64,000 bases of DNA from Escherichia coli (GTDB lineage Bacteria > Pseudomonadota > Gammaproteobacteria > Enterobacterales > Enterobacteriaceae). Shown piece after piece: positions 20,621 to 58,584 of this stretch (its first letter is position 1; each line of letters starts with the position of its first letter). The position numbers and the translations under genes are program-made. Location: NCBI RefSeq assembly GCF_013122565.1, contig NZ_CP053258.1; one strand, given 5' to 3'. The notes under the pieces were generated by a model. It was not told where the DNA came from. It ran no database searches and saw only the letters and a list, made by a program, of their open reading frames with translations.

Positions 20621-20878
20621 ATGCAAACCGTTATTTTTGGTCGTTCGGGTTGCCCTTACTGTGTGCGTGCAAAAGATCTGGCTGAGAAATTGAGCAATGA
20701 ACGCGATGATTTTCAGTATCAGTATGTAGATATTCGTGCGGAAGGGATCACTAAAGAAGATCTACAACAAAAGGCAGGTAAACCCGTAGAAACCGTGCCG
20801 CAGATTTTTGTCGATCAGCAACATATCGGCGGCTATACCGATTTTGCTGCATGGGTGAAAGAAAATCTGGACGCCTGA
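20621..20878 (+). CDS. grxA: glutaredoxin 1
   Basis: MQTVIFGRSGCPYCVRAKDLA... CPYC active site; 85 aa. Confidence 0.92.
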   Translation: MQTVIFGRSGCPYCVRAKDLAEKLSNERDDFQYQYVDIRAEGITKEDLQQKAGKPVETVPQIFVDQQHIGGYTDFAAWVKENLDA

Positions 20879-20883
20879 TCGTC

Positions 20884-20926
20884 TGACAAGCCCTCGCGTT
20901 GAGGGCTTTACTGATTTTTTCTGTGC
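20884..20926. terminator. bidirectional rho-independent terminator between grxA and ybjM
   Basis: hairpin aagccctcgcgttgagggctt followed by T-run; convergent genes on both sides. Confidence 0.65.
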
Positions 20927-21285
20927 TGTGGTTTAAACAAGCTGCTGATAAATAAGAAACACAGTGCCCCCAGCGCACACCAGAACACCGCGCTTAGTAA
21001 CCATGCCAGCTCTTGCCAGAATGAGCGGGTCGGTGAAAAAAACAGCCGCATAATAAGCATTGAACAGGGTGCCGCCAGCATTGCGCCAAACAGAGGTTTC
21101 AGGACTTCTCTACGCTGTGAAAAGAAACTGGCAACTGCTCCAGGAAGAATGAAAAACAGCAAGCCGATTTCAGGATGCCCGGCAGCCCGAAAAGCGCCTT
21201 TCATGTGCGTCGCCAGAAAAAGGCACACCACAATGAAGAGGACAAAACAGCAGATTGCCCCCGCCCAACGTTGTTTATGTTTCAC
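20908..21285 (-). CDS. ybjM: inner membrane protein YbjM
   Basis: 125-aa membrane ORF, synteny. Confidence 0.85.
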   Translation of the reverse strand: MKHKQRWAGAICCFVLFIVVCLFLATHMKGAFRAAGHPEIGLLFFILPGAVASFFSQRREVLKPLFGAMLAAPCSMLIMRLFFSPTRSFWQELAWLLSAVFWCALGALCFLFISSLFKPQHRKNQ

Positions 21286-21554
21286 TCGTTCCTCCTGACA
21301 CTGCGTCTATCGAACACATTTTTCGCCAGTGTGGCGTTCAGTAAGATAAAGCCGCTTCGCATTCCATGCTAATATAGGCCAACGCAATTCATATAGCCGT
21401 TGATACCTAATGTGATTACACTAGTAAAATATATTGTTACTTTACTATCGTTTAGGTGCGCTGAATGAATCTGCGCCCTGAATTCTGGTAAAAAACATTA
21501 TCGTAAATTACCATTTCTTTCAACAGCTTACTAGTAAACAAGAAGTTAGCCTCC

Positions 21555-23240
21555 GTGAATATAAACGTCGCCGAATTGTTAAATGGGAATTACATTCTGT
21601 TATTATTTGTGGTCCTCGCGCTTGGGCTATGTCTCGGAAAGTTACGACTTGGTTCGATCCAACTGGGTAATTCCATTGGCGTTTTAGTCGTATCGCTGTT
21701 ATTAGGCCAACAACATTTCAGCATTAACACCGACGCGCTTAATCTTGGCTTTATGCTGTTTATTTTCTGCGTCGGGGTCGAAGCCGGACCGAACTTTTTT
21801 TCCATTTTTTTTCGCGATGGGAAAAATTACCTAATGTTAGCACTGGTGATGGTTGGCAGTGCGCTGGTGATCGCCTTAGGGTTAGGTAAGCTGTTTGGCT
21901 GGGATATTGGCCTGACGGCCGGTATGTTAGCCGGCTCTATGACGTCGACACCGGTTCTGGTCGGTGCTGGCGATACACTGCGTCATTCCGGCATGGAAAG
22001 CAGGCAGCTCTCACTGGCGCTGGATAATCTGAGCCTCGGCTATGCCTTAACCTATTTAATCGGTCTGGTGAGTTTGATTGTTGGTGCGCGTTACTTGCCG
22101 AAATTGCAGCATCAGGACTTACAGACCAGCGCCCAGCAAATCGCCCGCGAACGTGGCCTGGACACTGATGCCAACCGTAAGGTTTATTTACCGGTGATCC
22201 GCGCCTATCGCGTCGGCCCGGAGCTGGTGGCCTGGACCGACGGCAAAAATCTGCGTGAACTGGGTATTTATCGACAAACCGGCTGCTACATTGAACGTAT
22301 TCGACGTAACGGGATTCTGGCAAATCCAGACGGTGATGCCGTGCTACAAATGGGCGATGAAATAGCGTTAGTAGGCTATCCCGACGCCCATGCCCGACTC
22401 GATCCCAGCTTCCGTAACGGTAAAGAAGTTTTCGATCGTGACCTTCTCGACATGCGTATCGTCACTGAAGAAGTGGTCGTTAAAAACCATAACGCTGTAG
22501 GTAAACGTCTCGCACAACTGAAGTTGACCGATCACGGTTGCTTCCTTAACCGCGTCATTCGTAGCCAGATTGAGATGCCGATAGATGACAACGTCGTGCT
22601 TAACAAAGGTGACGTTTTACAAGTCAGCGGCGATGCCCGCCGCGTAAAAACCATCGCCGATCGCATCGGCTTTATCTCGATTCACAGCCAGGTCACTGAC
22701 CTGCTGGCATTCTGCGCCTTCTTTGTTATTGGGCTGATGATCGGGATGATCACCTTCCAGTTCAGCACATTCAGTTTCGGCATGGGGAACGCTGCCGGGT
22801 TGTTATTCGCCGGAATTATGCTGGGCTTTATGCGTGCTAACCACCCGACCTTCGGTTACATTCCGCAAGGTGCATTAAGCATGGTGAAAGAGTTCGGCTT
22901 GATGGTGTTTATGGCAGGCGTTGGTCTGAGCGCCGGTAGCGGTATTAATAACGGCCTGGGCGCGATTGGCGGTCAAATGTTGATTGCCGGATTGATTGTC
23001 AGTCTGGTGCCCGTGGTTATCTGTTTCTTGTTCGGTGCTTATGTATTGCGAATGAACCGCGCACTGTTGTTCGGCGCAATGATGGGCGCACGCACCTGCG
23101 CGCCGGCAATGGAGATCATCAGTGATACAGCTCGCAGTAACATCCCGGCGCTGGGCTATGCGGGCACCTACGCAATCGCCAACGTCCTGCTGACGCTGGC
23201 AGGGACAATCATCGTCATGGTATGGCCAGGATTAGGATAA
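21555..23240 (+). CDS. ybjL: putative transport protein YbjL (AAE family, TrkA-C domains)
   Basis: 561-aa ORF (V/M)[19 protein letters not shown]..., probable GTG start. Confidence 0.9.
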
Positions 23241-23384
23241 AACTGAAGTTGCCCTGAAAATGAAATTTTTTTGCACAACCGCAGAACTTTTCCGCAGGGC
23301 ATCAGTCTTAATTAGTGCCACTGCTTTTCTTTGATGTCCCCATTTTGTGGAGCCCATCAACCCCGCCATTTCGGTTCAAGGTTG

Positions 23385-23411
23385 GTGGGTTTTTTGTTGC
23401 CTGAAATTTAT
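23385..23411. repeat. attL core direct repeat gtgggttttttgttgcctgaaatttat
   Basis: 26/27 identical to copy at 58558..58584. Confidence 0.75.
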
Positions 23412-23475
23412 GCCTTTTAAAATCATGATGTTAGAAGCACTGTTTTTTAACGATGGCGACAAAATGGCGGCAGCG

Positions 23476-23694
23476 TCAAAGAGAGAGCGCCACCTGTCCT
23501 GATTTCATTGGATGCGGCTGAACCGGATTTGACTCTTTTGGCGTTGCAATCGAACGAACAAAAGTTTCATGGGTAACAAAAGTATGGCTGCAGTTAATGT
23601 TCTGGCACTGGTTGTAACGCTCTTTGGTCAATGAAGATACCTGAAAACTGCTGCGAGTATGGGCGGCACTTCCACACAGTGGGCAAATCATCAT
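23476..23694 (-). CDS. ogr: Ogr-family zinc-finger late transcription activator
   Basis: MMICPLCGSAAHTRSS...CQNINCSHTF Cys4 pattern like P2 Ogr. Confidence 0.85.
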   Translation of the reverse strand: MMICPLCGSAAHTRSSFQVSSLTKERYNQCQNINCSHTFVTHETFVRSIATPKESNPVQPHPMKSGQVALSL

Positions 23695-23784
23695 TTTTCG
23701 AGTTCTCCCCATTTTTGCTAAATTCACAATAATGATACCGCATTATTCCATTTTGCAAACTTAAAAGTTCTCCATTGCGAAGAA

Positions 23785-24885
23785 TCATTCCATTTCGAAA
23801 TCATCAATCCTCACTTCGAGCTCCAGACTGGTTGTAAAACCGTTATCGGGGCTGACGGTATGCGTCAGAGTCGTAATGGTCCATTCCGCATCATCTATCG
23901 GCTGTTTAAAGCCACTGACCTTCACAGGCATTTCTGTGTAGAGATCTGCCCGCCCTTCCGCCAGTTGTAGCGAGAATGATGCAACGCCGCGTTGCAGGCG
24001 TTCCCACTGCATTTTCGCTGCCCGTTCAGCGTTGCTCCGGTTGGCATAAGTGCGATTAAGTACCAGCACGTTTTCATCCGTACCCACCAGGTAATCGCCC
24101 TGCTTCGCTTCCGGCTCTTTCTTCTGCTTTGCGGTCCTGCGCTTACGCTTCACCGTGGTGCTTTCTTTCTTCGCGGGTTCGCGGGTATGCAACCAACTGG
24201 CAATTACGCCCGTATAGGCTCCGCGATCTGCCAGGGTAAAGCGGTGACTGTCGCCGTCCTTGCGTGTGATAGTGATCACCGGCAGAGGTTTACCGCTGGC
24301 GCTTTTGCCCTGTCCCTGCCGGATGAATAACAGATTGCCATTTTTCACCGACGCAATAGCACCGTACTGGCGCGCCAGCCGCATCAGAAAACTGCCGTCA
24401 CTCTCATTGGTCTGGTCTATATGTTCCACGGGCTTATCCGACAGGTCTTTACCCAGTGCCATCTTCAGCTTGTGCCGCGCGGCTATTTCCTTCACCACTT
24501 CCCCGACAGTGGTCTTGTGCCACGATTTTTCACGGCGGGTATTCAGCGTTTCCCTAAAATCAGCACTTCGCGCCCGGATAGTCAGGCGATCCGGTGCGCC
24601 AGTGTGTTCAATCTCGTCCACCGTGAATGCCCCTTTCGGGAAAAGCGGCTGCCCCTTCCAGCCCAGCGCCAGCGTGATGACCGCACCACGGCGCGGCAGC
24701 ACGATTTTTCCGTCGGCGTCGTCCAGCTCCAGATCAAGCTGGTCTGCTTCAAAGCCCCGATTGTCCGTCAACGTCAGACTCATCAGGCGGTTATCCAGCA
24801 CAGTGGTGATATCCTTCCCCTCAATACTGATGCTGAATGCGGGAGTTTTGTTGCATTTGTTAAGCAGTTCAGAGCTGAAATTCAC
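23785..24885 (-). CDS. D: tail protein D (late control gene D)
   Basis: 366-aa ORF at P2 gene D position; remembered similarity. Confidence 0.8.
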   Translation of the reverse strand: MNFSSELLNKCNKTPAFSISIEGKDITTVLDNRLMSLTLTDNRGFEADQLDLELDDADGKIVLPRRGAVITLALGWKGQPLFPKGAFTVDEIEHTGAPDRLTIRARSADFRETLNTRREKSWHKTTVGEVVKEIAARHKLKMALGKDLSDKPVEHIDQTNESDGSFLMRLARQYGAIASVKNGNLLFIRQGQGKSASGKPLPVITITRKDGDSHRFTLADRGAYTGVIASWLHTREPAKKESTTVKRKRRTAKQKKEPEAKQGDYLVGTDENVLVLNRTYANRSNAERAAKMQWERLQRGVASFSLQLAEGRADLYTEMPVKVSGFKQPIDDAEWTITTLTHTVSPDNGFTTSLELEVRIDDFEME

Positions 24886-25367
24886 GACAGCAGCCCTCCC
24901 ACCGTTTTACTGATATCGCTTAAGGCAGACGTTGCCGTATCCTGCAAATTATTCAGTTGAGTACTGAGATCACCGAACATATCGGACAGGGATTCATCCA
25001 CCCGTTTGAGCGACAGGGTAAACTCAATCCGGCGCGGCATACCATCGCGGAAAAACTCCGTTTTAGTCTGATTCAGTCCCTCAATCACATACATGCCGTA
25101 AATCGTGCCGCTGCCTTCAATCAGGGGCCATGCTTTTCCCTGTTCTGCCATCTGCTCCAGAGCCAGCAACGACAGCCTGCCGCCCGTTATCTCCGGCATA
25201 AGAACACCAGAAAGCGTCAGCATGTCGTTGTCCGGTCCCAGAAACTGCGTGGACGGACGACGGTTTACCCGGCTGTTTGCCGCATGTCGCCAGCTGCGTT
25301 GATACTGCAGTTCCTGATACGGAACGGTGCGCAGCATAAACGCGTACAATCCCAGCACCATCATCAT
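24882..25367 (-). CDS. U: tail protein U
   Basis: 161-aa ORF at P2 gene U position. Confidence 0.8.
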   Translation of the reverse strand: MMMVLGLYAFMLRTVPYQELQYQRSWRHAANSRVNRRPSTQFLGPDNDMLTLSGVLMPEITGGRLSLLALEQMAEQGKAWPLIEGSGTIYGMYVIEGLNQTKTEFFRDGMPRRIEFTLSLKRVDESLSDMFGDLSTQLNNLQDTATSALSDISKTVGGLLS

Positions 25368-28300
25368 GCGTCGTATCCCCCCTGATCGCTGTAGTTACTC
25401 CTGGCTTTTGCCTTCAGCCTGCGTTCACGTTCATCAAGCTGGCGTGCCACCTCCCGCGCAATATCCTGCGCACTTTGTCCTGGCTGCGTCTGAATGATGA
25501 TCTGCGTCGGTGCCTCAATCCGGTGAACGGGCGGCACAGTGGCTGCACGACTCACCATCGCTTCGCCGCCTTTCGCGGGAAGTGCCAAAGGATGCAACGG
25601 TGGAAGTTCTGCAGGCGCGGCAGCAACGCCCATCATTCCGGCAACAACGGCAGCCAGTGCAGCTGTATTTCTCCGGCTGGTCACATTTGCCGGGCCGTTA
25701 ACAATTTCCGGCCCGTTTTCACCGACGATGCCAAACTGCCCGCGCGGGATATAGCCGCCGCTGTCATACATCCCCGCAAAGCCATATCCCCATGACGGAA
25801 AACCACCCGATGGCATCATCACTTTACCGTCTGCATTCACCGTCGCAGGTTGCTGACGCGTCACTCTTTCCGGCAGTTTCGCCTTTGCAGCCTCTTTACT
25901 GACAATGCCGAGTTTCTCCAGCAACCAGGAAACGCCGGATTTCAGGGAGTCCAGCGGATGCATGACCATATTCAGCCCTTCCGCCAGTGCCTCCCCGAAT
26001 CGTCGCCCCATTGCCGCTGCGCTCTGCAGTTCGGCAGAGGTCGACTTAACGGGCGTCAGCAGATCAGTAAACCAGCCCCACAACGCCTGCACTTTGTCGC
26101 CAATCCACTGAAACACAGGCTTAAGTGGTTCGAATGCTGCACTGATGGGACCTGCCGCCGCTTTGAATCCTTCCACCACACCAGCGAGAAATGCGGTGAT
26201 GGGTTGCCAGTATTTCCAGACAACCAGCGCCACGCCCGCCAGTGCAGTAACCACAAGACCTATCGGACTGAGCAGAGCACCTAACAGACCAGATATGGCA
26301 TACAGGGCAACGCGCAGCATCGCCAGCGGACCGGATGCCAGTACTCGCAGCACCGAGCCTGCGGCAGCCAGTCCACCGCGTAGTGCTGCCAGTGGATTCA
26401 TAAACATCACAGCAACAGCACGTAAACCGGATAATCCAGACCGCAACAGTGCAACCGGCACACCTGCTACAGTTTTCAGGACATTCCCCGTCAGTGATGC
26501 CGTGCGGCGCAAAGACGACAACGGCGCAGTAAGTAAACCCGCTGCGTTGCCCGATGAAGCAAGCCCGCGTCGCAGCAGTGCCAGTGGAGCGCCAGCTAAC
26601 CAGGACAACGCGCTGCTGGTTCGTGTTACTGCTGCCGTAACGGAAGATAACGTTTTGATACCCAGCACAGAGAATCCCAGACGGATGACTGCCAGCGGCC
26701 CCAGCACTGCAGCCAGCGCCACCGCTAAGGTGCCGAGGCCTACGGTAACCGCAGCCACAACAGCAGCTACTTTCATCAGTGTGCCTGTCAGTTCCGGGTT
26801 AGCTTCCACCCAGCGGCGCAACGCCCCCGTGATGCTTTTCACCGTGTACAGAATATCCATCAGCGGCTGGCGCAGCATTTCGCCCAGGCTGCTGAAGGTG
26901 TTCTGCGCTCCGGTTTTGACCAGCAACCACTGAGCGGAAAGTGAGTCCTTGTTAATGTCGGATTCTTTCTGCATGGAACCGAGCGCATCATTGCCCGCTG
27001 TCAGTTTTAGCTGGCGCTGCAGTTCCGGAAGGTTGTTTGCCAGTTTCGCCGCATCATCACCAAACTCTTTACCAAACAACATGGTCATGGCAGACAGACG
27101 CTTGTCCTGCGGCAGTGCGTTCACCTTCTCCAGCACACGCTGGATAGTTCCCATCGCATCCTTCGTCATCTGCTTTTCAATCACTTCAGGATTGAGTTTC
27201 AGCAGATTCATCCCTTCAAAGAAACTCTTGCTTTGCATGGTGGCAATGGACAATTCACGCACCATCGCGTTTGCTGCACTGGCTGCAACCTCCGGCGCAG
27301 CGCCCAGTGTCAGAAAGGTGGAACCCAGTGCCGCCGCTTTACGATAATCCAGACGGTCAGCCACACCGCCCAGACGTTGCATCACATCAATGATGTCCGC
27401 CCCTTTCGACATGGCGTTATCATCCAGATAGTTCAGCGCATCGCCGAGCTGTTCAATATTGCGGGTTGGTATTTTGTAGAGCTGGGCGATTTTCCCCAGA
27501 CTTTCTGACAGTTCATCCGCTGGCAGCTCAAAGGCTGTTGCCGCCTTTGCTGCCGTACTGGCGAAGGCCAGCAGGTCACGTTTCTGGTCTTCCCAGCTGT
27601 CGTCAGGGTTTGCGACGTTCATGCGCGCACCACCTTCAACCAGTGCAGCGAAGTCCACCGCACCGTTTTCCATCGGCAACTGTTCGCTGGCAGCCTTGAT
27701 GGCATCCTGCATTTCATAAAAACGTGCAGTGCGGTTGCCATTATCGTCACGCAGACCATTGACCTGCTTTGCCACACCTTTCATGGCATCTTCCATGCTG
27801 GTATAGCTTTTTACTGCCGCCATCACTGGCGCACCCATTGCCAGCCCTGCAGCCGTGGTAGTGGCTCCGGCTCCTGCGATGCGATCGCGCACTTCAAGCC
27901 GTCTTGAGTATTGTTCTCTGGCAGCGTTCATCCGTGCCTGTTGTTCACCCAGACGTTTAAGTGCTTTTTGCTGGCCCTCCAGTGCCTGCCTTGTTTCTTC
28001 AGCATTTTTCTTAAGTTCTCGCTGGGCACTACTGAGTTGTCTGGTATCAATCCCTGATTCTTTAAGTGCCTGACGTTGTCTCTGGACCGCCCCCAACAAG
28101 CCGTTATAGGTCTGCTGAAGTTCCTGTACTCGTGTTTTGGCCTGACTGAATAACTTTGCCTGCGCGGCGGTTGGCCTGTTAGTGGCAGCAAATTGTGTGG
28201 CGAGTTTTGCCGCCTCTTCGCGGGCTGCGTTCAGGTTGTTGGCTGTTATGGCTAGTTGCGAGCGCGTCTTGCGAAATTCATCAATTCTGCCAGCCTGCTT

Positions 28301-28441
28301 ATTCAGTTCTTTGAGGCTGTTTCGGGTATTCTGAATTGCGCCAGCCAGCTCTTTCGAACTGGCCTGTGCAGCACGGAATGGGCGGGTGAGTTTGTCAACC
28401 GCATTAAGAATGACCTGCAGGCGCAGGTTATTATCACTCAT
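25364..28441 (-). CDS. T: tail tape measure protein T
   Basis: 1025-aa Ala-rich, coiled-coil and repeat-rich ORF; position between E' and U. Confidence 0.85.
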   Translation of the reverse strand: MSDNNLRLQVILNAVDKLTRPFRAAQASSKELAGAIQNTRNSLKELNKQAGRIDEFRKTRSQLAITANNLNAAREEAAKLATQFAATNRPTAAQAKLFSQAKTRVQELQQTYNGLLGAVQRQRQALKESGIDTRQLSSAQRELKKNAEETRQALEGQQKALKRLGEQQARMNAAREQYSRRLEVRDRIAGAGATTTAAGLAMGAPVMAAVKSYTSMEDAMKGVAKQVNGLRDDNGNRTARFYEMQDAIKAASEQLPMENGAVDFAALVEGGARMNVANPDDSWEDQKRDLLAFASTAAKAATAFELPADELSESLGKIAQLYKIPTRNIEQLGDALNYLDDNAMSKGADIIDVMQRLGGVADRLDYRKAAALGSTFLTLGAAPEVAASAANAMVRELSIATMQSKSFFEGMNLLKLNPEVIEKQMTKDAMGTIQRVLEKVNALPQDKRLSAMTMLFGKEFGDDAAKLANNLPELQRQLKLTAGNDALGSMQKESDINKDSLSAQWLLVKTGAQNTFSSLGEMLRQPLMDILYTVKSITGALRRWVEANPELTGTLMKVAAVVAAVTVGLGTLAVALAAVLGPLAVIRLGFSVLGIKTLSSVTAAVTRTSSALSWLAGAPLALLRRGLASSGNAAGLLTAPLSSLRRTASLTGNVLKTVAGVPVALLRSGLSGLRAVAVMFMNPLAALRGGLAAAGSVLRVLASGPLAMLRVALYAISGLLGALLSPIGLVVTALAGVALVVWKYWQPITAFLAGVVEGFKAAAGPISAAFEPLKPVFQWIGDKVQALWGWFTDLLTPVKSTSAELQSAAAMGRRFGEALAEGLNMVMHPLDSLKSGVSWLLEKLGIVSKEAAKAKLPERVTRQQPATVNADGKVMMPSGGFPSWGYGFAGMYDSGGYIPRGQFGIVGENGPEIVNGPANVTSRRNTAALAAVVAGMMGVAAAPAELPPLHPLALPAKGGEAMVSRAATVPPVHRIEAPTQIIIQTQPGQSAQDIAREVARQLDERERRLKAKARSNYSDQGGYDA

Positions 28442-28870
28442 CGTTGGCCCCGCTTCTCTGAATCGCTTTATACCGCCATTCCAGCACTTCGGTCAGCGGC
28501 ATAACGTCAGTAACGGATGGCGGCCAATGAAAGATGGTGGCGATATCAGCCACCAGATCGTCAACCGTCAGGCTGTCGGTAAACCGGCAAGTACCGACTT
28601 CTTCAACAAAAAAGTGACAACCTCAACCGACATAGCGGTGAGATCTGCCGGGTCCATCTCTGCAATTTCCTGTGCAGTCAGTGCCGGGCTGGAGATGCGG
28701 GGGATCACGGTCATCATCGCGTTCACATCCATATCCATAATAGCCTGCAGGCGTGTACCGCGCAGTGCACCGGACTGCGGTTTACGCAGCACAATTTCGG
28801 TGATTTCCGTTTTACCGCGCTTGATAGGGGTATCCAGTTGAATAGTCTTTTCAGTCTGCTTATCGCTCAT
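28434..28870 (-). CDS. E+E': E+E' fusion product via programmed -1 ribosomal frameshift (predicted)
   Basis: Slippery heptamer T_TTT_TTG (minus strand 28613..28607) in E frame; -1 frame stays open about 57 codons to TGA overlapping T start (gATGAGTGA). Confidence 0.6.
28568..28870 (-). CDS. E: tail assembly chaperone E
   Basis: 100-aa ORF ending ..VVTFLLKKSVLAGLPTA; contains slippery TTTTTTG. Confidence 0.8.
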   Translation of the reverse strand: MSDKQTEKTIQLDTPIKRGKTEITEIVLRKPQSGALRGTRLQAIMDMDVNAMMTVIPRISSPALTAQEIAEMDPADLTAMSVEVVTFLLKKSVLAGLPTA

Positions 28871-28924
28871 TTTTCTGTCCTGTAAATTGGGTTCTGGCGC
28901 GGAATCCCGCGCTGCTCAGATACA

Positions 28925-29440
28925 TCAAAGGCCGAGGGCGTTGCGGTGCGCTTCCATCAGGTCCACGCCGTCCACAATTTCCACCATGTTGATAAGGTCC
29001 ACTTCATAGAGCACCTCACCATTGATAGTCAGCTTCGCGTAGCTGTTGGTACTGGTCACTTTGGTGGTGTTGCTTTCGCCCGTCTTCCACTCGCCGGAAT
29101 CCACTTCTTTGTGACGTCCACGCACCACAAGCTCCACGGCCTGCACTTCTCCGGTATCGTCACGCTGGATAGAGCCGGTAAAGCGCAACTGGATGCCATC
29201 CACCGTGGCTTTGCCCATCTGCTTAAACAGCAGCAGTTCAGTACCACCAATGGAAAATTCTGTGTCCAGCGCACTGTCATCAAGCCCCAGATCCACATCA
29301 ACTGCACCAGGCATTCCGCCGCCGCGATACTTCTCATATTTGCGGGTGAATTTCGGCAGCGTCAGCGACTCTACGATCCCCTGCCAGTTGTTCCCGTCGT
29401 TAAACAGGTTCAGATGTTTTAATTTGCGTGGTAAAGCCAT
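28925..29440 (-). CDS. FII: tail tube protein FII
   Basis: 171-aa ORF at P2 FII position. Confidence 0.85.
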   Translation of the reverse strand: MALPRKLKHLNLFNDGNNWQGIVESLTLPKFTRKYEKYRGGGMPGAVDVDLGLDDSALDTEFSIGGTELLLFKQMGKATVDGIQLRFTGSIQRDDTGEVQAVELVVRGRHKEVDSGEWKTGESNTTKVTSTNSYAKLTINGEVLYEVDLINMVEIVDGVDLMEAHRNALGL

Positions 29441-29449
29441 GTTATCCCC

Positions 29450-30622
29450 TTACGCGCTGACCTGGCTGGCGAAATTCACCAGGTACTGATCGGTGATGCG
29501 CTGGCGCAGCATCAGATTTTCAAGTGGTGGCACTGGCGTGTAGTCATAGTCGATGGTGAGTTTTCCGGCTTTCAGCGTGTCTTTGTCGTTCACTGACTCG
29601 TCCAGCCAGCAATCACCACCAATGAGATAGCCCTGACTGACCAGGCTGCGCATTTTGGCGCGGATGCCCTCGATAATGTCGCGCGCCAGCGACGGGTTCA
29701 GCGGTTTGTCCACCGCCCACATGTGCGCTTCTGCCATTGTGTCCGTCAGCACCTGCGCCGTGCGGGTGTAGTTTTCGAAGGCAAAAAGCGGATCATCGCT
29801 CAGACAGCGGGAACCCCAGAAGCGGAAACCATCCTTGCGCACAAGCGTGGTGACGTCGTTCTGGTTAAGCAGTCCCGCATCGGTTGCCGGGTCCTGCAGA
29901 TCCCAGAACACATCAGCAGAAATTCCGGTGACACCGTTCACGCCCACGTTGGACAGGCTTTTGTGCCACCCGGTCTGCTCATCAATTTTGGCGCGCAGAC
30001 CGAGCGCACGAGCGGTGGCATATGCCGTTGCTTCGGCATTCAGCACCGTGTCCCAGCCAGTAAAGTCAGGCCAGATCAGCATCCCTTCGCGCTGGCTGAA
30101 GTTTTCGCGGTAAGTGATCGCCTCCTGCACTGTCTTGCAGCCATACGCTGACAGGTAAGCAAACCCACGCAGGCTTTGCGCCACTCTCAGCAACTCAGTC
30201 GCAACGGCTTTGTTATCGTGGCCTGGCACGCCGAGAATGCGCGGTTTAACGCCGAGCTGTAACTGGGCAGATAACAGAGCTTTCATGCCTGTTTTTTTAC
30301 CTTCAGCAGTCACTGCGCCGATGATATTGGTCGTGGTTTCTTCTTCCGTTTCCCCCTGCGGCACACGCACAACAACGGTCACGGGTTTTGCCTGGTCAGC
30401 GATGGCATCCAGCGAACGGGCCAGCGTGCCGGACTCACCCGCTTTACCGCTGGCAGTCAGCACATCAGTGATCAGCACGGGTTTATTAAGAGGAAACATT
30501 TTTGCATCGGCATCATCGCCCGTGCAGACCATACCCACGATGGCGGTGCTCACCGTGGTAATGGATCGGGTGCCTTCGTTGACTTCAACAACGCGCACTC
30601 CGTGGTGGTAATCCTGAGCCAT
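29450..30622 (-). CDS. FI: tail sheath protein FI
   Basis: 390-aa ORF at P2 FI position. Confidence 0.85.
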
Positions 30623-30698
30623 AGTGGCGAACCTCCTGATTGGATTAGGCTTCGCCCTATGTTGAAGTGATTGTGCCTGACAAACAGCTAAGCGCAGT

Positions 30699-30716
30699 TG
30701 TGTCGTTATTCACACA
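30699..30716 (-). promoter_or_regulatory. Ogr-type late promoter dyad TGT-N12-ACA upstream of FI operon
   Basis: tgtgtcgttattcacaca about 80 bp upstream of FI start. Confidence 0.5.
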
Positions 30717-30764
30717 AAATAACGGTATTTGTCCGCTTACAGGAAAAATCAAAATAATGCTGAC

Positions 30765-31336
30765 TCAGGGCGATTCATTGTTCTCATTCGCCAGAAATTT
30801 TCTATAAATGGTAGAAACGCCCACATCAAAAATCAGTGCAATACGCTGTCTTGATTCTCCGGCCTCGAGTAAACGTCCAATCTGTGCCCACTGTTCGGTA
30901 GTCAACTTAGGACGGCGTCCACCTACTCTGCCTTTAGCACGAGCTGCAGCCAGCCCTTCCCTGGTACGTTCAACTATCAGTTCGCGTTCCATTTCAGCCA
31001 GGGCACCCATGACATGAAAAAAGAAACGGCCCATTGGGGTACTGGTATCAATACTGTCAGTCAGACTTCTGAAATTCACGCCGCGCTGGCGCAACTCTTC
31101 TATCAGAGTAACAAGATGCGCATACTGCGCCCCAACCTGTCCAGCTTCCAGACAACCAGTGTGTCACCTGCCGATAGTGTCCTGAGCAGCTTTTTCAGCC
31201 CTGGTCTGTCGGACTTGGTGCCACTGATTTTATCCTCAAAAATCCGCTCACATCCCGCGCAGTTCAGTGCATTACGTTGCAAATCGGTGTTCTGGTCATT
31301 TGTTGACACGCGTACATAGCCAATAAGCATGATCAT
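30765..31336 (-). pseudogene. Hin/Gin/Pin-family serine DNA invertase, disrupted by frameshift
   Basis: N-terminal 77-aa ORF (MIMLIGYVRVSTNDQ.. catalytic Ser) ends at in-frame TGA; C-terminal 109 aa continue in another frame; about 1-nt indel near 31117. Confidence 0.7.
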
Positions 31337-31387
31337 CCCTCTGAATAAAAACCGGAGATGATGCCAGTTAGCCGTAATCTCTGCATT

Positions 31388-31412
31388 TTCATAAACGTTG
31401 GTTTGGGAGAAG
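31388..31412. repeat. invertase crossover site (gix/cix-like), right copy
   Basis: ttcataaacgttggtttgggagaag; 15-bp perfect inverted repeat of the site at 33216..33240. Confidence 0.65.
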
Positions 31413-31756
31413 CGGCGAAAAGGGATGTGGGCACAGGAGATAATCAGATACCGGATATGGGAGCATTCGCTTCTGGTTCGGGATGGTTCAGGCTACCAGG
31501 TGGATATATTGTTCAGTTTGGCACTTTTTCAGGAAACACGACCCGCTTTATCAGTGGACACTTCCCTATACCATTCCCTAATCAGCCGATGGTTTCAGTC
31601 AGTGTTATGTCTGATGCCGTTCAGTCAGACCCGTCGATTCCTGCCCCGCAGGTTTTGTCTGTAAATTTTGAACATATCAGTAATTCAGCGTGGCGTGTGG
31701 CAACCAGTGATATCTCACAGCAATACAGATTCAGTTATATTTCGATAGGACGGTAG
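31413..31756 (+). CDS. alternative tail-fibre C-terminal variable segment (silent in this orientation)
   Basis: Plus-strand frame shares ..GLGE.. junction with H at the crossover site; no independent start. Confidence 0.5.
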
Positions 31757-31758
31757 AA

Positions 31759-32199
31759 ATGCAGAAATATATTTTCAGTGCCGATAAAAATGCGTTTTTC
31801 CCTGTGGAGCTTAAAATCGCTTATCAGGAATCCGGCGAATGGCCCGATGATGGAATCGAAATTGACGACACTGTTGCCGCCGAATTTATGAAGGAAGCAC
31901 CAGAAGGAAAATACAGAGGTGTCATCGACGGAATGCCTGCATGGATTGATATTCCACCGCCAACTCATGAGGAACAAATTGCCGCAGCCGAATTGGAAAA
32001 GCAGCAATTGATTAATCAGGTCAACGAATACATAAACAGTAAGCAATGGCCTGGTAAAGCGGCGATTGGTCGCCTGAAAGGTGAGGAACTGGCGCAATAT
32101 AATTTGTGGCTGGATTATCTGGACACACTGGAACTGGTCGATACTTCCGGTGCGCCAGATATTGAATGGCCTACGCCTCCGGCAGTTCAGGCCAGATGA
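31759..32199 (+). CDS. tail fibre assembly protein (alternative, Tfa')
   Basis: 146-aa ORF with conserved Tfa C-terminal pattern (..WPTPP..). Confidence 0.7.
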   Translation: MQKYIFSADKNAFFPVELKIAYQESGEWPDDGIEIDDTVAAEFMKEAPEGKYRGVIDGMPAWIDIPPPTHEEQIAAAELEKQQLINQVNEYINSKQWPGKAAIGRLKGEELAQYNLWLDYLDTLELVDTSGAPDIEWPTPPAVQAR

Positions 32200-32764
32200 C
32201 ATCCGGCGCAGTGCTGGTATCTGTTACCGTCACCGCGTCAATATAATCCAGCACGGCGTTAAGTCGGGTTGTTTCTGCCTGCGTCAGCTTCCGCCCGGCC
32301 TGTAATTTCAGTTGAATCAGACTGATGGAAGCCATTGCAGCATCGATCAGCGACTGGCGCTGTGCTTCTGCCGCGTCTACTGCGGCACTATGCTGTGCCT
32401 CAGTATCTGTCACCCATTTCTCACCATCCCATTTATCGTATGGCGTTAACGGTGAAAGCGTGACATAACCGTCTTTGATGGCACCGATATAATCCACTGT
32501 AACAGCTGCGCCATTTTCTGTTGAGTAAACAGTCTCATTGCGATGGTCTTCTTCATGGCTCCATCCCTTACCCGTAAATACTGCCACTCTTCCCGGAATG
32601 TATTCGCCCGGGTCAATACCAGTGGAACAGGCGGGCATACTTACGCCAGTATTAATATATTCATCAGACCAGCCAGTATATTCATACGTAACTGCCTCAT
32701 AATAAAAACAACGCATATTACCAGGTACTGTAGCCAGCCCATTTTCATCAAAAACAGGTTTCAT
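32171..32764 (-). CDS. G: tail fibre assembly protein G
   Basis: 197-aa ORF directly downstream of H; Tfa-like C-terminus (..VIWPELPEA). Confidence 0.75.
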   Translation of the reverse strand: MKPVFDENGLATVPGNMRCFYYEAVTYEYTGWSDEYINTGVSMPACSTGIDPGEYIPGRVAVFTGKGWSHEEDHRNETVYSTENGAAVTVDYIGAIKDGYVTLSPLTPYDKWDGEKWVTDTEAQHSAAVDAAEAQRQSLIDAAMASISLIQLKLQAGRKLTQAETTRLNAVLDYIDAVTVTDTSTAPDVIWPELPEA

Positions 32765-34278
32765 TATGCAGCCCTCACAATATAATTAAAGGCGATGTTA
32801 CGTGGACGGTTTTCATTAGCTGTTGGCACGACACGAGAGGCGTCGAATCCAAGGTCATCGGTTTTGCCTATAGCAGTTGTGTTATTCGCCATTGTCGCTG
32901 ATCGTGTTCCTGCATCGTAAAAAGCCCCTCTGATTGCATCAAAAGACATGCCGATCCCGCCATCTGCGAATCCCTCAATATTTCTTATTGCATCCCCCTG
33001 TGAAGATAATAATTGTCGCCCGGCATCCACTCCACGTCCGTCATCCCAGCCACGAATAAATTCACCGCGTAAATCAGGCAATTTATTTGTCGGATAAACC
33101 TTTGCCAGTTCCGGGTATTCTTCAGCAGAAAAAGCCGCACCATTGCATTTTAGCCAGCCTGTTGGCGGAGTGGCGGAAGGCCACGGGACAGGCACACCAA
33201 CGGGTAATGCCGAACCTTCTCCCAAACCAAGGTATGCGAGAAGACCAGCCACATCCTTTCCACTCAAATTGGTAAGCGTATTGTCCAGCGGTTGTTTACC
33301 TGCCAGCGCATTAAGCATTGTCGTGGCAAAGTTCGGATCATTCCCCAGTGCCGCCGCCAGTTCGTTCAGTGTATCCAGTGCCGCGGGTGCAGAACCCACC
33401 ATTGCTGCAATCGCTGATTTCACAAAAGCCGTAGTGGCAATCTGTGTATTGTTGACCGACTGCGCCGCCGTGGGGGCTGTTGGCGTTCCGGTGAGTGCCG
33501 GACTCGATAGCGGCGCTTTCAGTGCCAGCGCATTGTTAATGGTGGTACTGAATTTCGGATCATTGTTAATGGCTACAGCTATTTCTTTCAGCGTGTCCAG
33601 CGTGGCTGGCGCACCATTAATAAGAGCCGTCAGTGCCGCCTGAACAAACTCGGTGGTCGCAACCTGCGTGGTGTTATTCCCCGCCGCTGGCGTTGGCGCT
33701 TTGGGTGTCCCGGTAAACGTAGGACTTTCTTTCTGTGCATACTGTGAATGCGGGTCCGGTGCGGCAAGATGTTTTGCCATCTGATCATCTGCGTACACCT
33801 TCAGCTCCAGTACCTTATCATCCACATACTTGCGGGTTGCCAGCACTACGGCAGGGTCGATTTTCAGGGTGATATTGTCCGTGCTGCTGGTAATCAACAC
33901 CATACGCACGGTCTGGGTACGCCCGCTGCCTTCAGCCAGTTGCGGCTTATAACTTTCCGGGCAGTTGCCCACGGCAATCAATGCCCCGGACTCATCAAAC
34001 AGGCCCACTTCACGTATCCACCAACCGCCCTCGTTTTCAGGGATCACCTGTTCAGCAATAATCTGGCTGCTGTTCTGCGGGTCGATATAGAGCATATTCA
34101 GCGCAGCCCGGCGTTTCTCATTTACCAATGCTGTCTGCTTTGCGTCCGGCGTTGGCAATGTTCCACCGCCATCGCCGACCGCCATATGGGTAATTTTTAA
34201 AGGCACACCGAGCGCGGCGGCGCTGGCAAGGTTCGCCGCGCCAATATCCGTCAGCAGGGTATAAAATTTTGTGCTCAT
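32764..34278 (-). CDS. H: tail fibre protein H
   Basis: 504-aa ORF, Ala/Thr-rich repeats; P2 H position. Confidence 0.8.
   Translation of the reverse strand: MSTKFYTLLTDIGAANLASAAALGVPLKITHMAVGDGGGTLPTPDAKQTALVNEKRRAALNMLYIDPQNSSQIIAEQVIPENEGGWWIREVGLFDESGALIAVGNCPESYKPQLAEGSGRTQTVRMVLITSSTDNITLKIDPAVVLATRKYVDDKVLELKVYADDQMAKHLAAPDPHSQYAQKESPTFTGTPKAPTPAAGNNTTQVATTEFVQAALTALINGAPATLDTLKEIAVAINNDPKFSTTINNALALKAPLSSPALTGTPTAPTAAQSVNNTQIATTAFVKSAIAAMVGSAPAALDTLNELAAALGNDPNFATTMLNALAGKQPLDNTLTNLSGKDVAGLLAYLGLGEGSALPVGVPVPWPSATPPTGWLKCNGAAFSAEEYPELAKVYPTNKLPDLRGEFIRGWDDGRGVDAGRQLLSSQGDAIRNIEGFADGGIGMSFDAIRGAFYDAGTRSATMANNTTAIGKTDDLGFDASRVVPTANENRPRNIAFNYIVRAA
33216..33240. repeat. invertase crossover site, left copy inside H
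   Basis: cttctcccaaaccaaggtatgcgag; inverted copy of site at 31388..31412. Confidence 0.65.
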
Positions 34279-36795: not shown

Positions 36796-37701
36796 ATGAC
36801 ACAAATCGGTATCTATGGATATTGCTTCACGAAAGAATTTACTTTTAAAGGAGGGACACTGATACCTCGTTACAAATCCTTTAAGGAACTAAAAGAGAAT
36901 AAATGCGATGGAAGCGAATATGTATTAAGTGGATTTTTCTCTCCCGCACATGCTTCTGAAAACACCGTCACTCAAATAATTTATGATCTTTCAGCTGTTT
37001 TAAGTTTCATTGAACAAAAAAATGTAATCATATCAAACTTCCTAGAGGAACATGAAACACCTGAAAAGTTAGATAATAATTTCCCACTAAAATTGAAGTC
37101 AAAAAGAAAGTCATCACTAGGAATAATTGTTGAAGATTACTTCTCTGAAAAGAGTCGCTCAGCGTTCATTGAGCTTGCGATGGATAAACTTCATAGAAAT
37201 ATTAATTCTCATCAAAACCCTTTTAGAACTGCGTTCTATAAGTCTATATTTTCTTTTAGGGAAAGAATGGACTATGTAGATGTTAAATACTTCCTTAATT
37301 TCTCAGCATTAGAATCCCTGTGCAGATATATCGATAACGAGTCGACATCTAGTTATACACCACAAATAATTACAAAGGTTTTAAAAGATTATGGTTTTAA
37401 TGTATCTAAAGAAGGCAACCCTGTACCACAAAGAAACGTGATTCACTATTGCACGCTTCGAAACTCTCTATTCCACAATGGAAATTATATTGGATACATT
37501 AAGAAAGATGATCCAAGCAGTATCATTAAATTAAGTGATTATTATTCAAATCTAAATTTACTTTTACCTTTAGTATTAATGAAATATATAGGATTCGATG
37601 ATGGATTAATTAACTGGGACTCATGGATAGACTATGAACCATTTCTCGCCCTCAGGCCTAAAAACTTAACTCCATCGAATGGTAAACAATCAATTAGATA
37701 G
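36796..37701 (+). CDS. hypothetical moron protein with Rx4H (HEPN-like) motif
   Basis: 301-aa ORF (MTQIGIYGYCF...), RBS aggag upstream, about 33% GC, opposite strand to flanking tail genes; ..CTLRNSLFHNG.. motif. Confidence 0.6.
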   Translation: MTQIGIYGYCFTKEFTFKGGTLIPRYKSFKELKENKCDGSEYVLSGFFSPAHASENTVTQIIYDLSAVLSFIEQKNVIISNFLEEHETPEKLDNNFPLKLKSKRKSSLGIIVEDYFSEKSRSAFIELAMDKLHRNINSHQNPFRTAFYKSIFSFRERMDYVDVKYFLNFSALESLCRYIDNESTSSYTPQIITKVLKDYGFNVSKEGNPVPQRNVIHYCTLRNSLFHNGNYIGYIKKDDPSSIIKLSDYYSNLNLLLPLVLMKYIGFDDGLINWDSWIDYEPFLALRPKNLTPSNGKQSIR

Positions 37702-46108: not shown

Positions 46109-47869
46109 CTATATGCTGCATATTTTTTTATAATGTTCAAAAACATCTTTAAAAGTGTTGAGTATTATTTCAAAACCACTAAAATCAACTTTTCGTTTTT
46201 TATCCCTAACTACTTTCACAGAGAAAACATGTTTCCCATATTCAGTTTTTGAGTCCCCATCGTTCTTTTTGTTAAATTTTTTACCACCAAGAATAGTTGA
46301 TAATACATCATGAGTAAAAAGATCTTCCATCGCAGTCTGCTCACCAGTAGCACTTAAAGGCGTTAGAATGATATAGAGATTTTTAAAGACATGGATAAAT
46401 CTCATTTTTCTCATTTTATTGGTATCATCGGGGCAGCTCTTAACATTATTTTTAAGGAAATTCAAAATCTCATTAGAACCAGAATCGTTGTCCAATACCA
46501 TGATAACCGGGTGCTTAGGAATGCTTCCATAGTAGCTTGAATATTCATCCATATATCTTTCGATGAATTTTTTAAGATCTGCGCTACCTCCAGACATATT
46601 AATAAAATAACTTGACTTCTCATCAGATTTAAAAATATTCAAGTTGATATCATTTCCTTTACCGTCTGTGCTTTTCTTGAGCAACTCAGGAAATTTGGCA
46701 GAAAGTGAACGAATAGCTGATTTTAAATATACTCGATCAGTTTTGCCTTCTGTCAAGATTGTCGGGGAAGCATGTCCATGAAAAAACTTGTAGTAAATAA
46801 ATTTACTATATGCCTTCTCTCGTACATTCAGCTTTAACCTGTAGTTTTTTAATGTAATATGAATAGGCGCATATTTTTCAGGCTGTTTACTTATTTTATC
46901 TTGTATGTTATTAAATTTATCAATCTGGTCAATAAACCCAAATCTTCCCTCTAGTTTTTCGATACTCCCCACGACTAGCTTACCATCTTCATCAGGTAGC
47001 TTATATTCTCCCTTACTATAAAGTGAATGAGCTAATGCTCTTGTTTTATTCGAATATTTCCTATCAACGTTAACAAATCTATTTATAGTAAGTCCCGTAA
47101 CTTCTTGTCTCGTGGATTTGTACGAGATCCTTGTTTTAGCATCATTAATATCAAAACCAGCACGTTTTATTTCACTGACAAGAATGCTCCCCAAGACAAC
47201 CCCCTCAGGAAGAGATATTGCCAAATCGGTAGGAAATTCTTTTTTATTAGTTGAAAACGTGATGTCATCGGCATAACGACTATATGAACAACCTAAACTC
47301 TTTGCTAATTTAGCTAATCTAATATCCATAATGCTACAAATTAAGTTTGTTATCACTGGAGAACACGGGCTACCCTGAGGCAAACTTCCCTTATAGCATG
47401 CGGCTTTAGCTAAAGTAGTGGCGACAATCGGATTTAATAAGAAATCCCTATTGGATAGGAAGTACCCTCTCACTCGCCCAAAATTAAAGCTTTTGAAAAA
47501 ATCCTTAAGATCAATATTGAGTATTATATTTTTCCCACGATGTCTGAAAGCATTGGAAATTATTGACTTATTTCTTTCAAAACCAAAGGAGTAATTGTTT
47601 TTAATTTTTTTAATTTTGAAAGTTTCATCTCTACACTCCATTAAAAGATCGGCTATTCGTCTTTGGAGATCTTTCAAACTATCTTCTGGCGCAGAAATCA
47701 ATCTGACTCCCTTACCTTTTTTTGGAATAGAGAAATCTTTATACTGATTATCAGTACCAATTCTGTAAAGAATATTCGTTAAAAACACCAACTTAACATC
47801 TAGCAATTTTGCCAAGTCAGCACGAGATGCTGCGACTTTCAAAAGTAGTAATTTAGAAGTTGCGACCAT
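46109..47869 (-). CDS. ret: retron-type reverse transcriptase with C-terminal Toprim-like domain (Ec67/Retron-Eco2-like)
   Basis: 586-aa ORF; RT motifs [12 protein letters not shown] and YADD; C-terminal ..ILTEGKTD.. and ..VLDNDSG.. resemble Toprim E and DxD motifs; about 33% GC. Confidence 0.8.
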
Positions 47870-48469: not shown

Positions 48470-48895
48470 ATGAAAAGCTTTTACGTATTAATTTTAATTC
48501 TGGTTGCAAGCTTTGTTAGCGTCCCAGTTCAGGCGGTAACAGCTAAAAACTATGAGAAAGGAACTAAAGCTCAACAGAAATCAATATCTTACCTTTCATG
48601 TGCATTCTATGGCAGTAGCACACAATTAGATCCTAGCTACACGGAGCAAGTACCTACAGCCGATATCAAGATATTACAGAAAGCAGCTTACCACGCTTAC
48701 AACGATGCGCTCTCATACTTTGGCTATGAGGAACCAGATCACGAACAACGCATAATTGATTATGCTGAATTTGTGGCGTCGCAAGAAGCTGTGTTATGGG
48801 ATAAGCCGGGAATGAATGGAAAGCAGGTAACACTAATTGCTCGTTCTCTCTACAATGAGAGTAACTGTAACTTGTTACTGGACTCAATTAAGTAG
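48470..48895 (+). CDS. hypothetical secreted protein (signal peptide)
   Basis: 141-aa ORF MKSFYVLILILVASFVSVPVQA...; AT-rich; opposite strand to neighbours. Confidence 0.6.
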   Translation: MKSFYVLILILVASFVSVPVQAVTAKNYEKGTKAQQKSISYLSCAFYGSSTQLDPSYTEQVPTADIKILQKAAYHAYNDALSYFGYEEPDHEQRIIDYAEFVASQEAVLWDKPGMNGKQVTLIARSLYNESNCNLLLDSIK

Positions 48896-49054
48896 GAAAA
48901 AGATGGTATTTTGCCCGTAGTTTCAACCTTAATCTCCGAACCTGTCGCAGAACGGGCGTTCACTCATCAAATAAACGCCACACCTAACGCCTCACTGTAC
49001 TCGTTGTTCAACCTTGCTGACGCCAGAACCAAGTTCAGACGCCAGCAACTTTTC

Positions 49055-49288
49055 TTAATGCAGCCAGCTGTCGTCTTCCCACACCTTCTGCATAATCTTC
49101 ATCACTTGTTTTCTTTCTTCGTCCAGTTGCAGTCCGGTCAGTTCCACACCGTTAGAGCTACCTTTGCGGATGCGAATTACCGTTTTGGGATACAGGGGGC
49201 GCAGATTGCGGTAAAGCTCGGATTCAAGGGCGTCCAGGGTAGACTGGCTAATCTTCTGCTCTTTATCGATCATTATTTCAATGCGCAT
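49055..49288 (-). CDS. DinI-like protein (Tum/antirepressor C-terminal-domain-like)
   Basis: 77-aa ORF MRIEIMIDKEQKISQSTLDALESEL...WEDDSWL resembling the DinI family; GAGGTGA RBS upstream. Confidence 0.7.
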   Translation of the reverse strand: MRIEIMIDKEQKISQSTLDALESELYRNLRPLYPKTVIRIRKGSSNGVELTGLQLDEERKQVMKIMQKVWEDDSWLH

Positions 49289-49298
49289 AAAGGTCACC

Positions 49299-49487
49299 TC
49301 AGCTGATGACATCCATTGAGCGGTTGTATTCGTGGGTTCTGATTTTTGCCATGAGTTCATCAGTCAATTCAGAAACCCACTGCAGAGCCAGCCCCTTCTC
49401 TTCATCACTACACTCACTAGCCGCTACAAGCTTAAGAAAAAAATCAATGCGCTGGAGCTTCAAAGACTCCAAAAAATAGTCCTGCAT
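49299..49487 (-). CDS. hypothetical small protein (first gene of LexA-box-associated operon)
   Basis: 62-aa ORF just upstream of the DinI-like gene. Confidence 0.5.
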   Translation of the reverse strand: MQDYFLESLKLQRIDFFLKLVAASECSDEEKGLALQWVSELTDELMAKIRTHEYNRSMDVIS

Positions 49488-49639: not shown

Positions 49640-52054
49640 TTAATACAGGTTCCGCCACTTATCATCTTCCTGCAAACGCTGGTTCCGATAGAAGATACGC
49701 AGGCCTGCTCCTGACGGAATACTGCCGCCGCGAAGGAGTAAATCGACCTCTTTCTCGCTGCCATCAAATCCTCTGGACTTCAGTTCATAGACGAGCTGCT
49801 GTCGCTGATGGTCTGTAATTCGCTGTTTGTAGTCTTTACGCCGTTTCGGTTTCACCAGGCGTAACCTTGCAGCCAGTTCCCGGCGCTCTTTTTTGCTCAT
49901 ACTGTGCAGGTATTCGTGCAACTCCTTGTCATCCATGCGGGTAATGTCCGTTCTGGTATCCCCATCAGCTGATTTGTCTTTCCCTTGTTGGTTCAAATTT
50001 TCAGCAAGGGGACAGTTATTGCCACGAGTCCAAGGGGCGCAAGCGCCCTGGTCGGCTACCGCCTCCTGAACGTCAACGGCTTTACGAACCATTTTCCACT
50101 TCACTGCATGAGTGCAGATCTTGCCCTCTGCAATGGGTGACCAGATGCCATAAATACGAATGCCGTGATCGCCATAGGCGGTCGGCTCTTCGTTAATTTC
50201 ATAAGCAGTTCTGATGAGGTGATATTTGCGGGGAACCAGTACGCCGCCCTGCTTCATGATGTAAGTGGCAAAACAACCAGCATCAGCAGCAGCCAGGATT
50301 GCATCAAGGCGCGGGTTATCCAGTACCGGCGCACCTGCTTTTTTGTCCCCCTGTTGCCTTGCCGCCTGACCAGCCAACAATCGCAGTTCACGGTAAGCCT
50401 GACGCCCCGGAATGCCAAAGAAGCGGAATTGCTGAACACGATGCAAAGACGCCCAGGCATTCACGTATTCAGCGTTATCACGCAGAGATTTACCCGTTTC
50501 CTTGCTGATCTCGCCAGCCAGACCACGCCCGTCAATGTTCTTACTGATGTATTTCGCGATGTAGCTTGTTGGCGTACCTTTGCGCGGGTTTATCAGCTCA
50601 GACTTAAAGCGTGGTCCCGTGTTATTACCCAGCTCCTCGCGGTCTTCACGAATGGCAAACTTACGCAACAAAGCAGTAATGGCTCGGCGATCTTTTTTGC
50701 GCATAAAACACAACAGGTGCCAGTGCACTGTACCGTCATGATGCGGCTCAGCCACCCGCACGCCATACCAGCGCAATCCGGCTTTGTGCATCGCTTTACG
50801 AAATGCAGCAAACATGCCGACCAGATAATCACTGCTTTGTCTTACCGTCGCGTTTGTCCAGGTCGGGTTTGGTCTGCCGTTATTTAGCGTGGAATGGAAA
50901 CGTGACGGACAGGTGATGGTGTAGAAAACGGCGCAGTCACCGCGCATTTCCGCGATAAGCTCCAGACCTTTAACACAGGCCATCATCTCATTGCGGCGAT
51001 GCGCAGGGTTGCTGCTGCTGGCGTTTACCACGTCTTCCATATCCAGCGTGTCGCCGTCTTCGTTCACCAGTTCATGAGAACGAAAAAACTCCAGCGACTT
51101 ACGGCGCTGCTCACGTTTATGCATCACGGCTTCATAGCTGACATAGGGAGATGCTTTTTTGCTGACCAGGCAGACAGCGCGCAACTGCTCTTCCCGCCAT
51201 TCGCAACGCATCTTCCATAATTTCCGATACCACCAGTCGGCGCACAACATACGCGCCAGCGAACCCGGAATGAGTTCATAGGGCACGGGTTTACGGCGGT
51301 TTCTTTTCCGGCGGAGTTGCTCAAACGCAGGTGGGATGACATCCAGTCGCAGGGTTTCTGCTGCCACCCTTTCCCATGTCTTGCGGATTTCTTCTGGCTT
51401 AACGTCATCGGTGGCATACAAATCGCCACAAGCTGCATCAAGGCACATGCTCATATGCGCAGCTACCAGGGTGGACAGGCGTTTCACCTGATCCTGACTC
51501 ATTTCAGGCAGGATCAGCAGGCCGTCCAGCCCTTCCTGGCTCGCCATAAAGCGAAAAGCAGTGGATAGCTGACTGTCGCGTACATGCTCCAGCCGTTCCA
51601 GACATGGCTTAATCGTCTCACGCAAATAGCGGGAATAAGCCTTTGGCCTGCCCAGGCTGCTGAAGTATTCAATACGTTGCATCAGCGGCTTGCTGATATG
51701 GGAAGGCTGGGCGTTAACGTCCGCCAGAATGACCATGTCTGGATTAAAACGCTGCTGCTCATGCGCCAGCTTTGCCCGGCTAATGAGCTTATCCTGCTCT
51801 ATTTCGCGTTGGACAGGATCACGGGATTCATTAAAGAAATAACGCTCCCAGACCTGATCACTCAGAGCCTCGCGGCGCAGTTGTTCCTGCTCGTTATCGG
51901 CAGCGTACAGAGTGATCAGGTTTGAAAGCGCAGAAACCGGCGCAACTTCCGCCGGGTCCAGATAAGGGTTAATGGCCTTTTTCGGGCTGTTCCATGAGAA
52001 TGCTGCGGCGACCTCGTTAAAGCCGCTGCAGTTGTTCATATCATCATGGCTCAT
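49640..52054 (-). CDS. A: replication initiation protein A (rolling-circle nickase)
   Basis: 804-aa ORF at P2/186 gene A position. Confidence 0.85.
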
Positions 52055-58557: not shown

Positions 58558-58584
58558 GTGGGTTTTTTGTTGCCTAAAATTTAT
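58558..58584. repeat. attR core direct repeat gtgggttttttgttgcctaaaatttat
   Basis: 26/27 identical to attL copy; 3 bp from rcdA stop. Confidence 0.75.

Follow-up and report, generated by a model that had tools for sequence, protein, structure and literature searches.

Probable inactivation by a one-base deletion of the DNA invertase gene beside an invertible tail-fibre segment in a P2-like Escherichia coli prophage

Tail-fibre segments inverted by Gin, Cin or Pin are textbook systems, and the catalytic domain of serine recombinases folds as one unit with helix E. We describe here a locus of this type from a 64-kb window, by which we mean the whole stretch of 64,000 nucleotides of Escherichia coli contig NZ_CP053258.1 (assembly GCF_013122565.1) that was analyzed; its Gin/Pin-type invertase gene lies at 30765-31330 on the minus strand and has 188 codons when intact. 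The gene is like Mu gin in length class and in the order of its domains (Resolvase followed by HTH_7) and, as at the Mu G segment, it adjoins a segment that swaps fibre C-termini and their chaperones between inverted 26-bp sites, which share the 12+2+12 layout of Mu gix (TTATCCAAAACC-TC-GGTTTACAGGAA). It is unlike Mu in that the host element is P2-like, the segment measures 1.83 kb and not about 3 kb, the site sequence differs, with AA as the core here and TC in Mu, and the gene is frameshifted. Likeness to PinE and the P segment of e14 extends to the crossover sites themselves, which are almost identical to the pix sites of an e14-like element (TTCTCCCAAACC-AA-... in both), and the 146-aa and 197-aa chaperone cassettes also occur in e14/Mu-like elements. 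Segment sizes are similar as well, at 1829 bp here and 1797 bp for e14 (PMC12529663). The prophage backbone, however, is different from that of e14, the gene here is apparently inactivated, and annotated pinE genes are about 84-91% identical, matching only the first 75-79% of the gene.

The invertase gene lies in a P2-like prophage that spans about 35 kb (35.2 kb; 23385-58575) and is bounded by an 18-nt direct repeat (23385-23402 and 58558-58575) that extends to 27 nt with one mismatch. The RybB sRNA gene (23320-23398, plus strand; Rfam, 104 bits) adjoins the prophage, its 3' end being overlapped by the repeat, and the direct repeats, one of which lies past the integrase, mark the attachment sites. 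An integrase and a repressor accompany the P2 late-gene order (Q P O N M L X, lysis, R S V W J I H, fibre assembly), which continues past tail-fibre assembly with FI FII E T U D and ogr. Nearly all proteins of the FACU 2024 prophage (43 of 44) have a collinear counterpart within 23479-58441; that of the invertase is split in two, and the other 42 are free of stops, 39 of these being full length and three falling 1-6 residues short at the C-terminus. One small hypothetical protein of FACU 2024 has no match in the window. The other prophage genes mapped show neither stops nor gaps, which leaves the invertase as the only one found broken. The 5' 211 nt of the invertase gene are identical to the intact FACU 2024 allele.

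Several other features of the prophage and its surroundings were recorded. The tape-measure protein (25364-28441, minus strand) is 88.7% identical to that of FACU 2024, compared with 97-100% for the neighbouring tail genes, and its region is probably a local mosaic patch. After the portal gene, a cargo gene at 46109-47869 (minus strand) encodes a 586-aa reverse transcriptase that matches the NCBIfam model "retron Ec67 family RT/endonuclease" (686 bits, cut-off 450) and also PADLOC RT-Toprim I-C; Rfam returned no retron RNA at the gathering score, and no other RNA at the invertase locus. The prophage also encodes a Dam methylase (52054-52908) and is located near 19 min of the K-12 map; in its reverse transcriptase, methylase and map position the element resembles retronphage phiR67. 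Past the retron reverse transcriptase gene, on the opposite strand and about 600 nt from its start, two small ORFs of 141 and 131 aa occupy 48470-49306 (plus strand); neither NCBIfam nor PADLOC matches the 141-aa ORF, and PADLOC does not match the 131-aa ORF. Between repressor and integrase, a 558-aa ORF (55672-57348, plus strand) is a PADLOC candidate for PD-Lambda-1 (E=3e-120) with no NCBIfam match, and would be a second defence-type cargo gene in the prophage. Baseplate gene V and tail gene S are separated by a 301-aa ORF on the opposite strand (36796-37701, plus strand), for which NCBIfam and PADLOC give no match; its exact protein occurs in only six contigs of a large collection, all with this prophage type. 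In the chromosomal flank (1-21500, with art, pot, rimK, nfsA, grxA and ybjL), the best identity to any of 5,426 complete E. coli genomes is 97.0-98.5%, and with no genome exceeding 98.5% the host is E. coli-like and of a lineage that is not in the collection.

The lesion itself can be read directly from the window (Table 1). A minus-strand ORF (31336..31103) ends at a TGA (31105-31103), and the earlier note had counted 77 codons from its first ATG (31336); the ORF and its stop stand, while the start is most likely the ATG at 31330, annotated as such in relatives, which gives 75 codons. The product reads M(IM)LIGYVRVSTNDQ...GRSMR-ILLL (more fully, MLIGYVRVSTNDQ...WKLDRLGRSMR-ILLL), that is, 71 native residues followed by ILLL and the TGA. 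The remaining invertase, from HLVTLIEELRQRGVNFRSLTDSIDT...STIYRKFLANENNESP to ...NENNESP, is open in a different frame as far as a stop at 30765-30767, so that the continuation in another frame described earlier is correct. Alignment with two intact E. coli homologues leaves a single gap, ATGCGGCAT in the relatives being ATGC-GCAT in the window, and the base lost is one G of a GG pair in codon 71 (CGG to CG-C), at 31119 and thus within the interval 31117..31120 in which a missing base had been proposed. Two internal starts lie in the 3' part: a TTG at 31094 gives a 109-aa ORF, and the ATG of MGRFFFHV gives an 89-aa ORF that is called as a gene in other assemblies carrying the frameshift.

Table 1. 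Coordinates of the split invertase gene, the crossover sites and the alternative fibre cassettes in the window.
Feature	Position	Strand	Description
Invertase 5' fragment	31103..31330	-	71 native codons with catalytic Ser9 in YVRVSTNDQ and the DRLGR motif, then ILLL and TGA
Frameshift site	31119	-	one G; GG in all intact relatives
Invertase 3' part, out of frame	30765..31118	-	ancestral residues 72-188: remainder of the catalytic domain, helix E, HTH_7
Crossover site, invertase-proximal, 26 bp	31386..31411	-	TTCTCCCAAACC-AA-CGTTTATGAAAA; core 31398-31399; inversion breakpoint relative to L024
Crossover site 2, 26 bp	33217..33242	+	TTCTCCCAAACC-AA-GGTATGCGAGAA; core 33229-33230; within the tail-fibre gene, encodes ..AYLGLGE..
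Invertible segment, 1829 bp	31400..33228		two alternative fibre C-terminal cassettes, each with its own assembly chaperone
Tail-fibre gene (P2 H-like), current fusion	32764..34278	-	constant residues 1-354 and collar-type C-terminus, 504 aa
Fibre assembly gene, expressed cassette, 197 aa	32171..32764	-	
Fibre assembly gene, silent cassette, 146 aa	31759..32199	+	
Silent fibre C-terminal cassette (gp53-like C domain)	31358..31756	+	ORF start lies outside the segment, and the ORF spans the crossover site
Predicted junctions of the inverted form			GAAC-CTTCTCCCAAACCAA-CGTTTATG and GCCG-CTTCTCCCAAACCAA-GGTATGCG

Restoring the G in silico yields one 188-aa ORF, which is matched by Pfam Resolvase at residues 3-135 (3.7e-53), by HTH_7 at residues 138-179 (2.3e-14) and by PHROG 125, "DNA invertase" (1e-99). 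Its best structure match is Gin of phage Mu (PDB 3UJ3, E=1.8e-90; 4M6F, E about 1e-90), with 138 residues identical to Gin over a 182-residue overlap, and the gamma-delta and Tn3 resolvases trail at 1e-29 to 1e-35, so that by this measure the repaired ORF is nearer to characterised invertases than to resolvases. Members of the Hin/Gin/Cin/Pin (Din) family carry the catalytic serine in YxRVSTxxQ, which is found as YVRVSTNDQ in the 5' fragment (residues 5-13), and the two inverted 26-bp sites beside the gene have identical 2-bp cores (both AA). In the family the HTH is joined to the catalytic domain in a polypeptide of ~185-195 aa, whereas here HTH_7 is out of frame past codon 71; the frameshift falls within the Pfam Resolvase domain, leaving Ser9 and DRLGR on a 75-aa peptide. 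Given this domain architecture, enzyme activity has presumably been lost. The one-base gap against homologues and the Gin-type character of the repaired ORF uphold the earlier reading of an invertase gene inactivated by a frameshift and, judged from its sequence, the locus is a pseudogene of an invertase family member rather than a working member. We consider it very probable that it represents the cis-encoded Din-type invertase of the P2-like prophage, pseudogenised by the loss of one G in codon 71.

The switch on which such an enzyme would act is preserved in the window, where 31386-31412 pairs with 33216-33242 as an inverted repeat. When the segment is flipped in silico, the 504-aa fibre with a collar-type end becomes one of 468 aa with a gp53-like end, and both ORFs are open. 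Inversion between near-identical prophages is observed: in the prophage of GCA_021121335.1, which is 99.9% identical and has an intact invertase, 31395-33230 is inverted with breakpoints exactly in the two sites, and a further read set yields the segment as a contig of its own that ends at the core dinucleotides, as is usual for an actively inverting segment. The ancestral 188-aa enzyme would have bound the two 26-bp sites and flipped the intervening segment, swapping the receptor-binding C-terminus of the fibre (collar-type or gp53-like) along with the matching assembly chaperone. From the frameshifted allele, translation would end after 75 residues; with the catalytic serine thus severed from helix E and the HTH domain, the prophage should be unable to make its own invertase, and continued flipping would depend on an invertase encoded elsewhere in the genome.

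The intact form of the gene is the rule among relatives. The invertase and its cassettes are widespread among P2-like prophages, and a near-full-length copy of the invertase occurs in 732 of 5,426 E. coli genomes; all of the listed E. coli matches (40/40) and of the full-length phage matches (19/19) cover 702 nt for the 701-nt query, and 33 of 33 full-length homologues, sampled evenly down the match ranking, are exactly 567 nt long. The frameshift allele was found in no complete E. coli genome of the collection searched and was absent from an exact-pattern scan of 100,044 species-representative genomes. Exact-product look-ups recovered the identical deletion in three other public assemblies. 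The Logan contig of SRR11451224, which may be the read set underlying the window's own assembly, is 100% identical to the window over 20765-31316 (10,552 bp); that of SRR29598430 (L003) has two internal differences in 3.7 kb, in addition to its terminal base; and NCBI assembly GCA_041679425.1 (L025) combines the frameshift with another fibre cassette and with three additional nucleotide differences in the 5' fragment. Column by column, the gap is present in all four frameshift sequences and in none of eight intact alleles. No match was returned by exact-product look-ups for the 77-aa form of the invertase, the 504-aa fibre or the predicted 468-aa inverted fibre, nor by a literature search on the accession numbers.

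GCA_041679425.1 also differs at its fibre-proximal site (L025 6421-6447, corresponding to window 33216-33242), which reads CTTCTCCCAATTGAAGG instead of CTTCTCCCAAACCAAGG; the change from AAACC to AATTG turns LGLGE into LQLGE, and the cassettes differ as well. This reflects either decay of the site or import of the fibre segment from a switchless phage. Two substitutions, A125E and P180L, had been considered as signs of relaxed selection. A125E was rejected as a sign of decay, being present also in the intact allele of the nearest relative, GCA_021121335.1. P180L is found, among the compared sequences, only in the window and SRR11451224, and so arose after the frameshift; it is the only one of the two that post-dates it.

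A single-base indel is the commonest kind of consensus error, and the missing G might accordingly be a sequencing or assembly artefact in an organism whose gene is intact. We regard this as highly improbable: the site is a GG dinucleotide and not a long homopolymer run, the same deletion is present in three assemblies under other accessions, two of them set apart from the window by nearby SNPs, and P180L appeared after the frame had already been lost. Since the deletion is common to isolates that are distinguishable by SNPs, it is an inherited mutation rather than a consensus error, and it appears to have been passed on vertically within a small lineage. It would be more surprising still if a functional protein were made from the split gene, whether by programmed -1 frameshifting or from two cooperating fragments. 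The downstream frame is open to the original stop and a TTG 9 nt past the TGA could allow re-initiation, yet the split lies inside the Resolvase domain (residues 3-135) and is not conserved, every other listed homologue being one continuous ORF, and no slippery heptamer of the form X_XXY_YYZ occurs in the 0 frame across the truncated ORF. Without such a heptamer, and with the split in no homologue, recoding is very unlikely, and a pseudogene arising from a true deletion is the reading that we retain.

What this means for the switch is a separate matter. The earlier note had taken the switch, if the lesion is real, to be locked in its current orientation; the loss of the cis-encoded invertase holds, and it is only for that enzyme that loss is demonstrated, while locking is not established, because the sites are intact and trans action is documented. 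A truly locked switch, with the present orientation fixed and the phage making only the 504-aa collar-type fibre, is a real possibility, though less likely than not. It is in keeping with the tblastn search, which detected no second serine recombinase encoded in the 64-kb window, and the changed fibre-proximal site of GCA_041679425.1 would fit the decay of an unused system. Against it, both sites of the window are intact and nearly identical to the e14 pix sites, and action in trans between prophages is documented: the P segment of e14 is inverted by PinQ from the Qin prophage (PMC12529663), and the same paper also cites classic work on Gin/Pin complementation. Contig breaks in SRR11451224 point in the same direction. 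Two contigs identical to the window (L023 and L026) stop at 31316, within the 5' end of the invertase, and at 33529, in the constant part of the fibre, where the terminal 30-mers are common to other P2-like invertase and H alleles and the next base differs. Stops at such 30-mers are the behaviour of a k=31 graph for a genome that contains another module of similar sequence, and this assembly behaviour suggests that a second homologous tail-fibre/invertase module lies elsewhere in the genome of SRR11451224. A weaker hint is a single base: the SRR29598430 contig ends at the invertase-proximal crossover site, and its last base is that expected for the opposite orientation. As proof of inversion this end was rejected, since contigs from active inversion end exactly at the core and this one has one extra base. 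When the 167-aa product predicted for the inverted junction was looked up, every genome returned had an intact invertase. That a co-resident prophage supplies the invertase in trans, so that the frameshifted lineage may keep a working switch, is a tentative proposal that we consider rather unlikely.

Loss of the invertase is a known kind of decay, and this is an ordinary pseudogene whose allele is rare. In one related P2-like prophage (L012) the invertase is interrupted by an IS element, in another (L020) the segment has no invertase gene called beside it, in BL21(DE3) and C43(DE3) only the first 239 nt of the invertase match, and in an unrelated tailed prophage (L017) a short invertase fragment adjoins the same cassettes. 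These lesions involve the insertion or deletion of large pieces, whereas here one base is missing and the rest of the gene, the sites and the prophage are intact.

For annotation, the locus is an invertase pseudogene and the tail-fibre gene is one of two alternative fusions. The case is also an example of a single-base frameshift call that can be checked against independent public read assemblies. The host range of the induced prophage would be fixed to that of the collar-type fibre only if the strain is without another Pin/Gin-type invertase. If an invertase is indeed supplied in trans, the prophages of a cell would have a single inversion enzyme in common and a cis copy could be lost without penalty; the junction base of the sister isolate and the contig breaks would be traces of that sharing.
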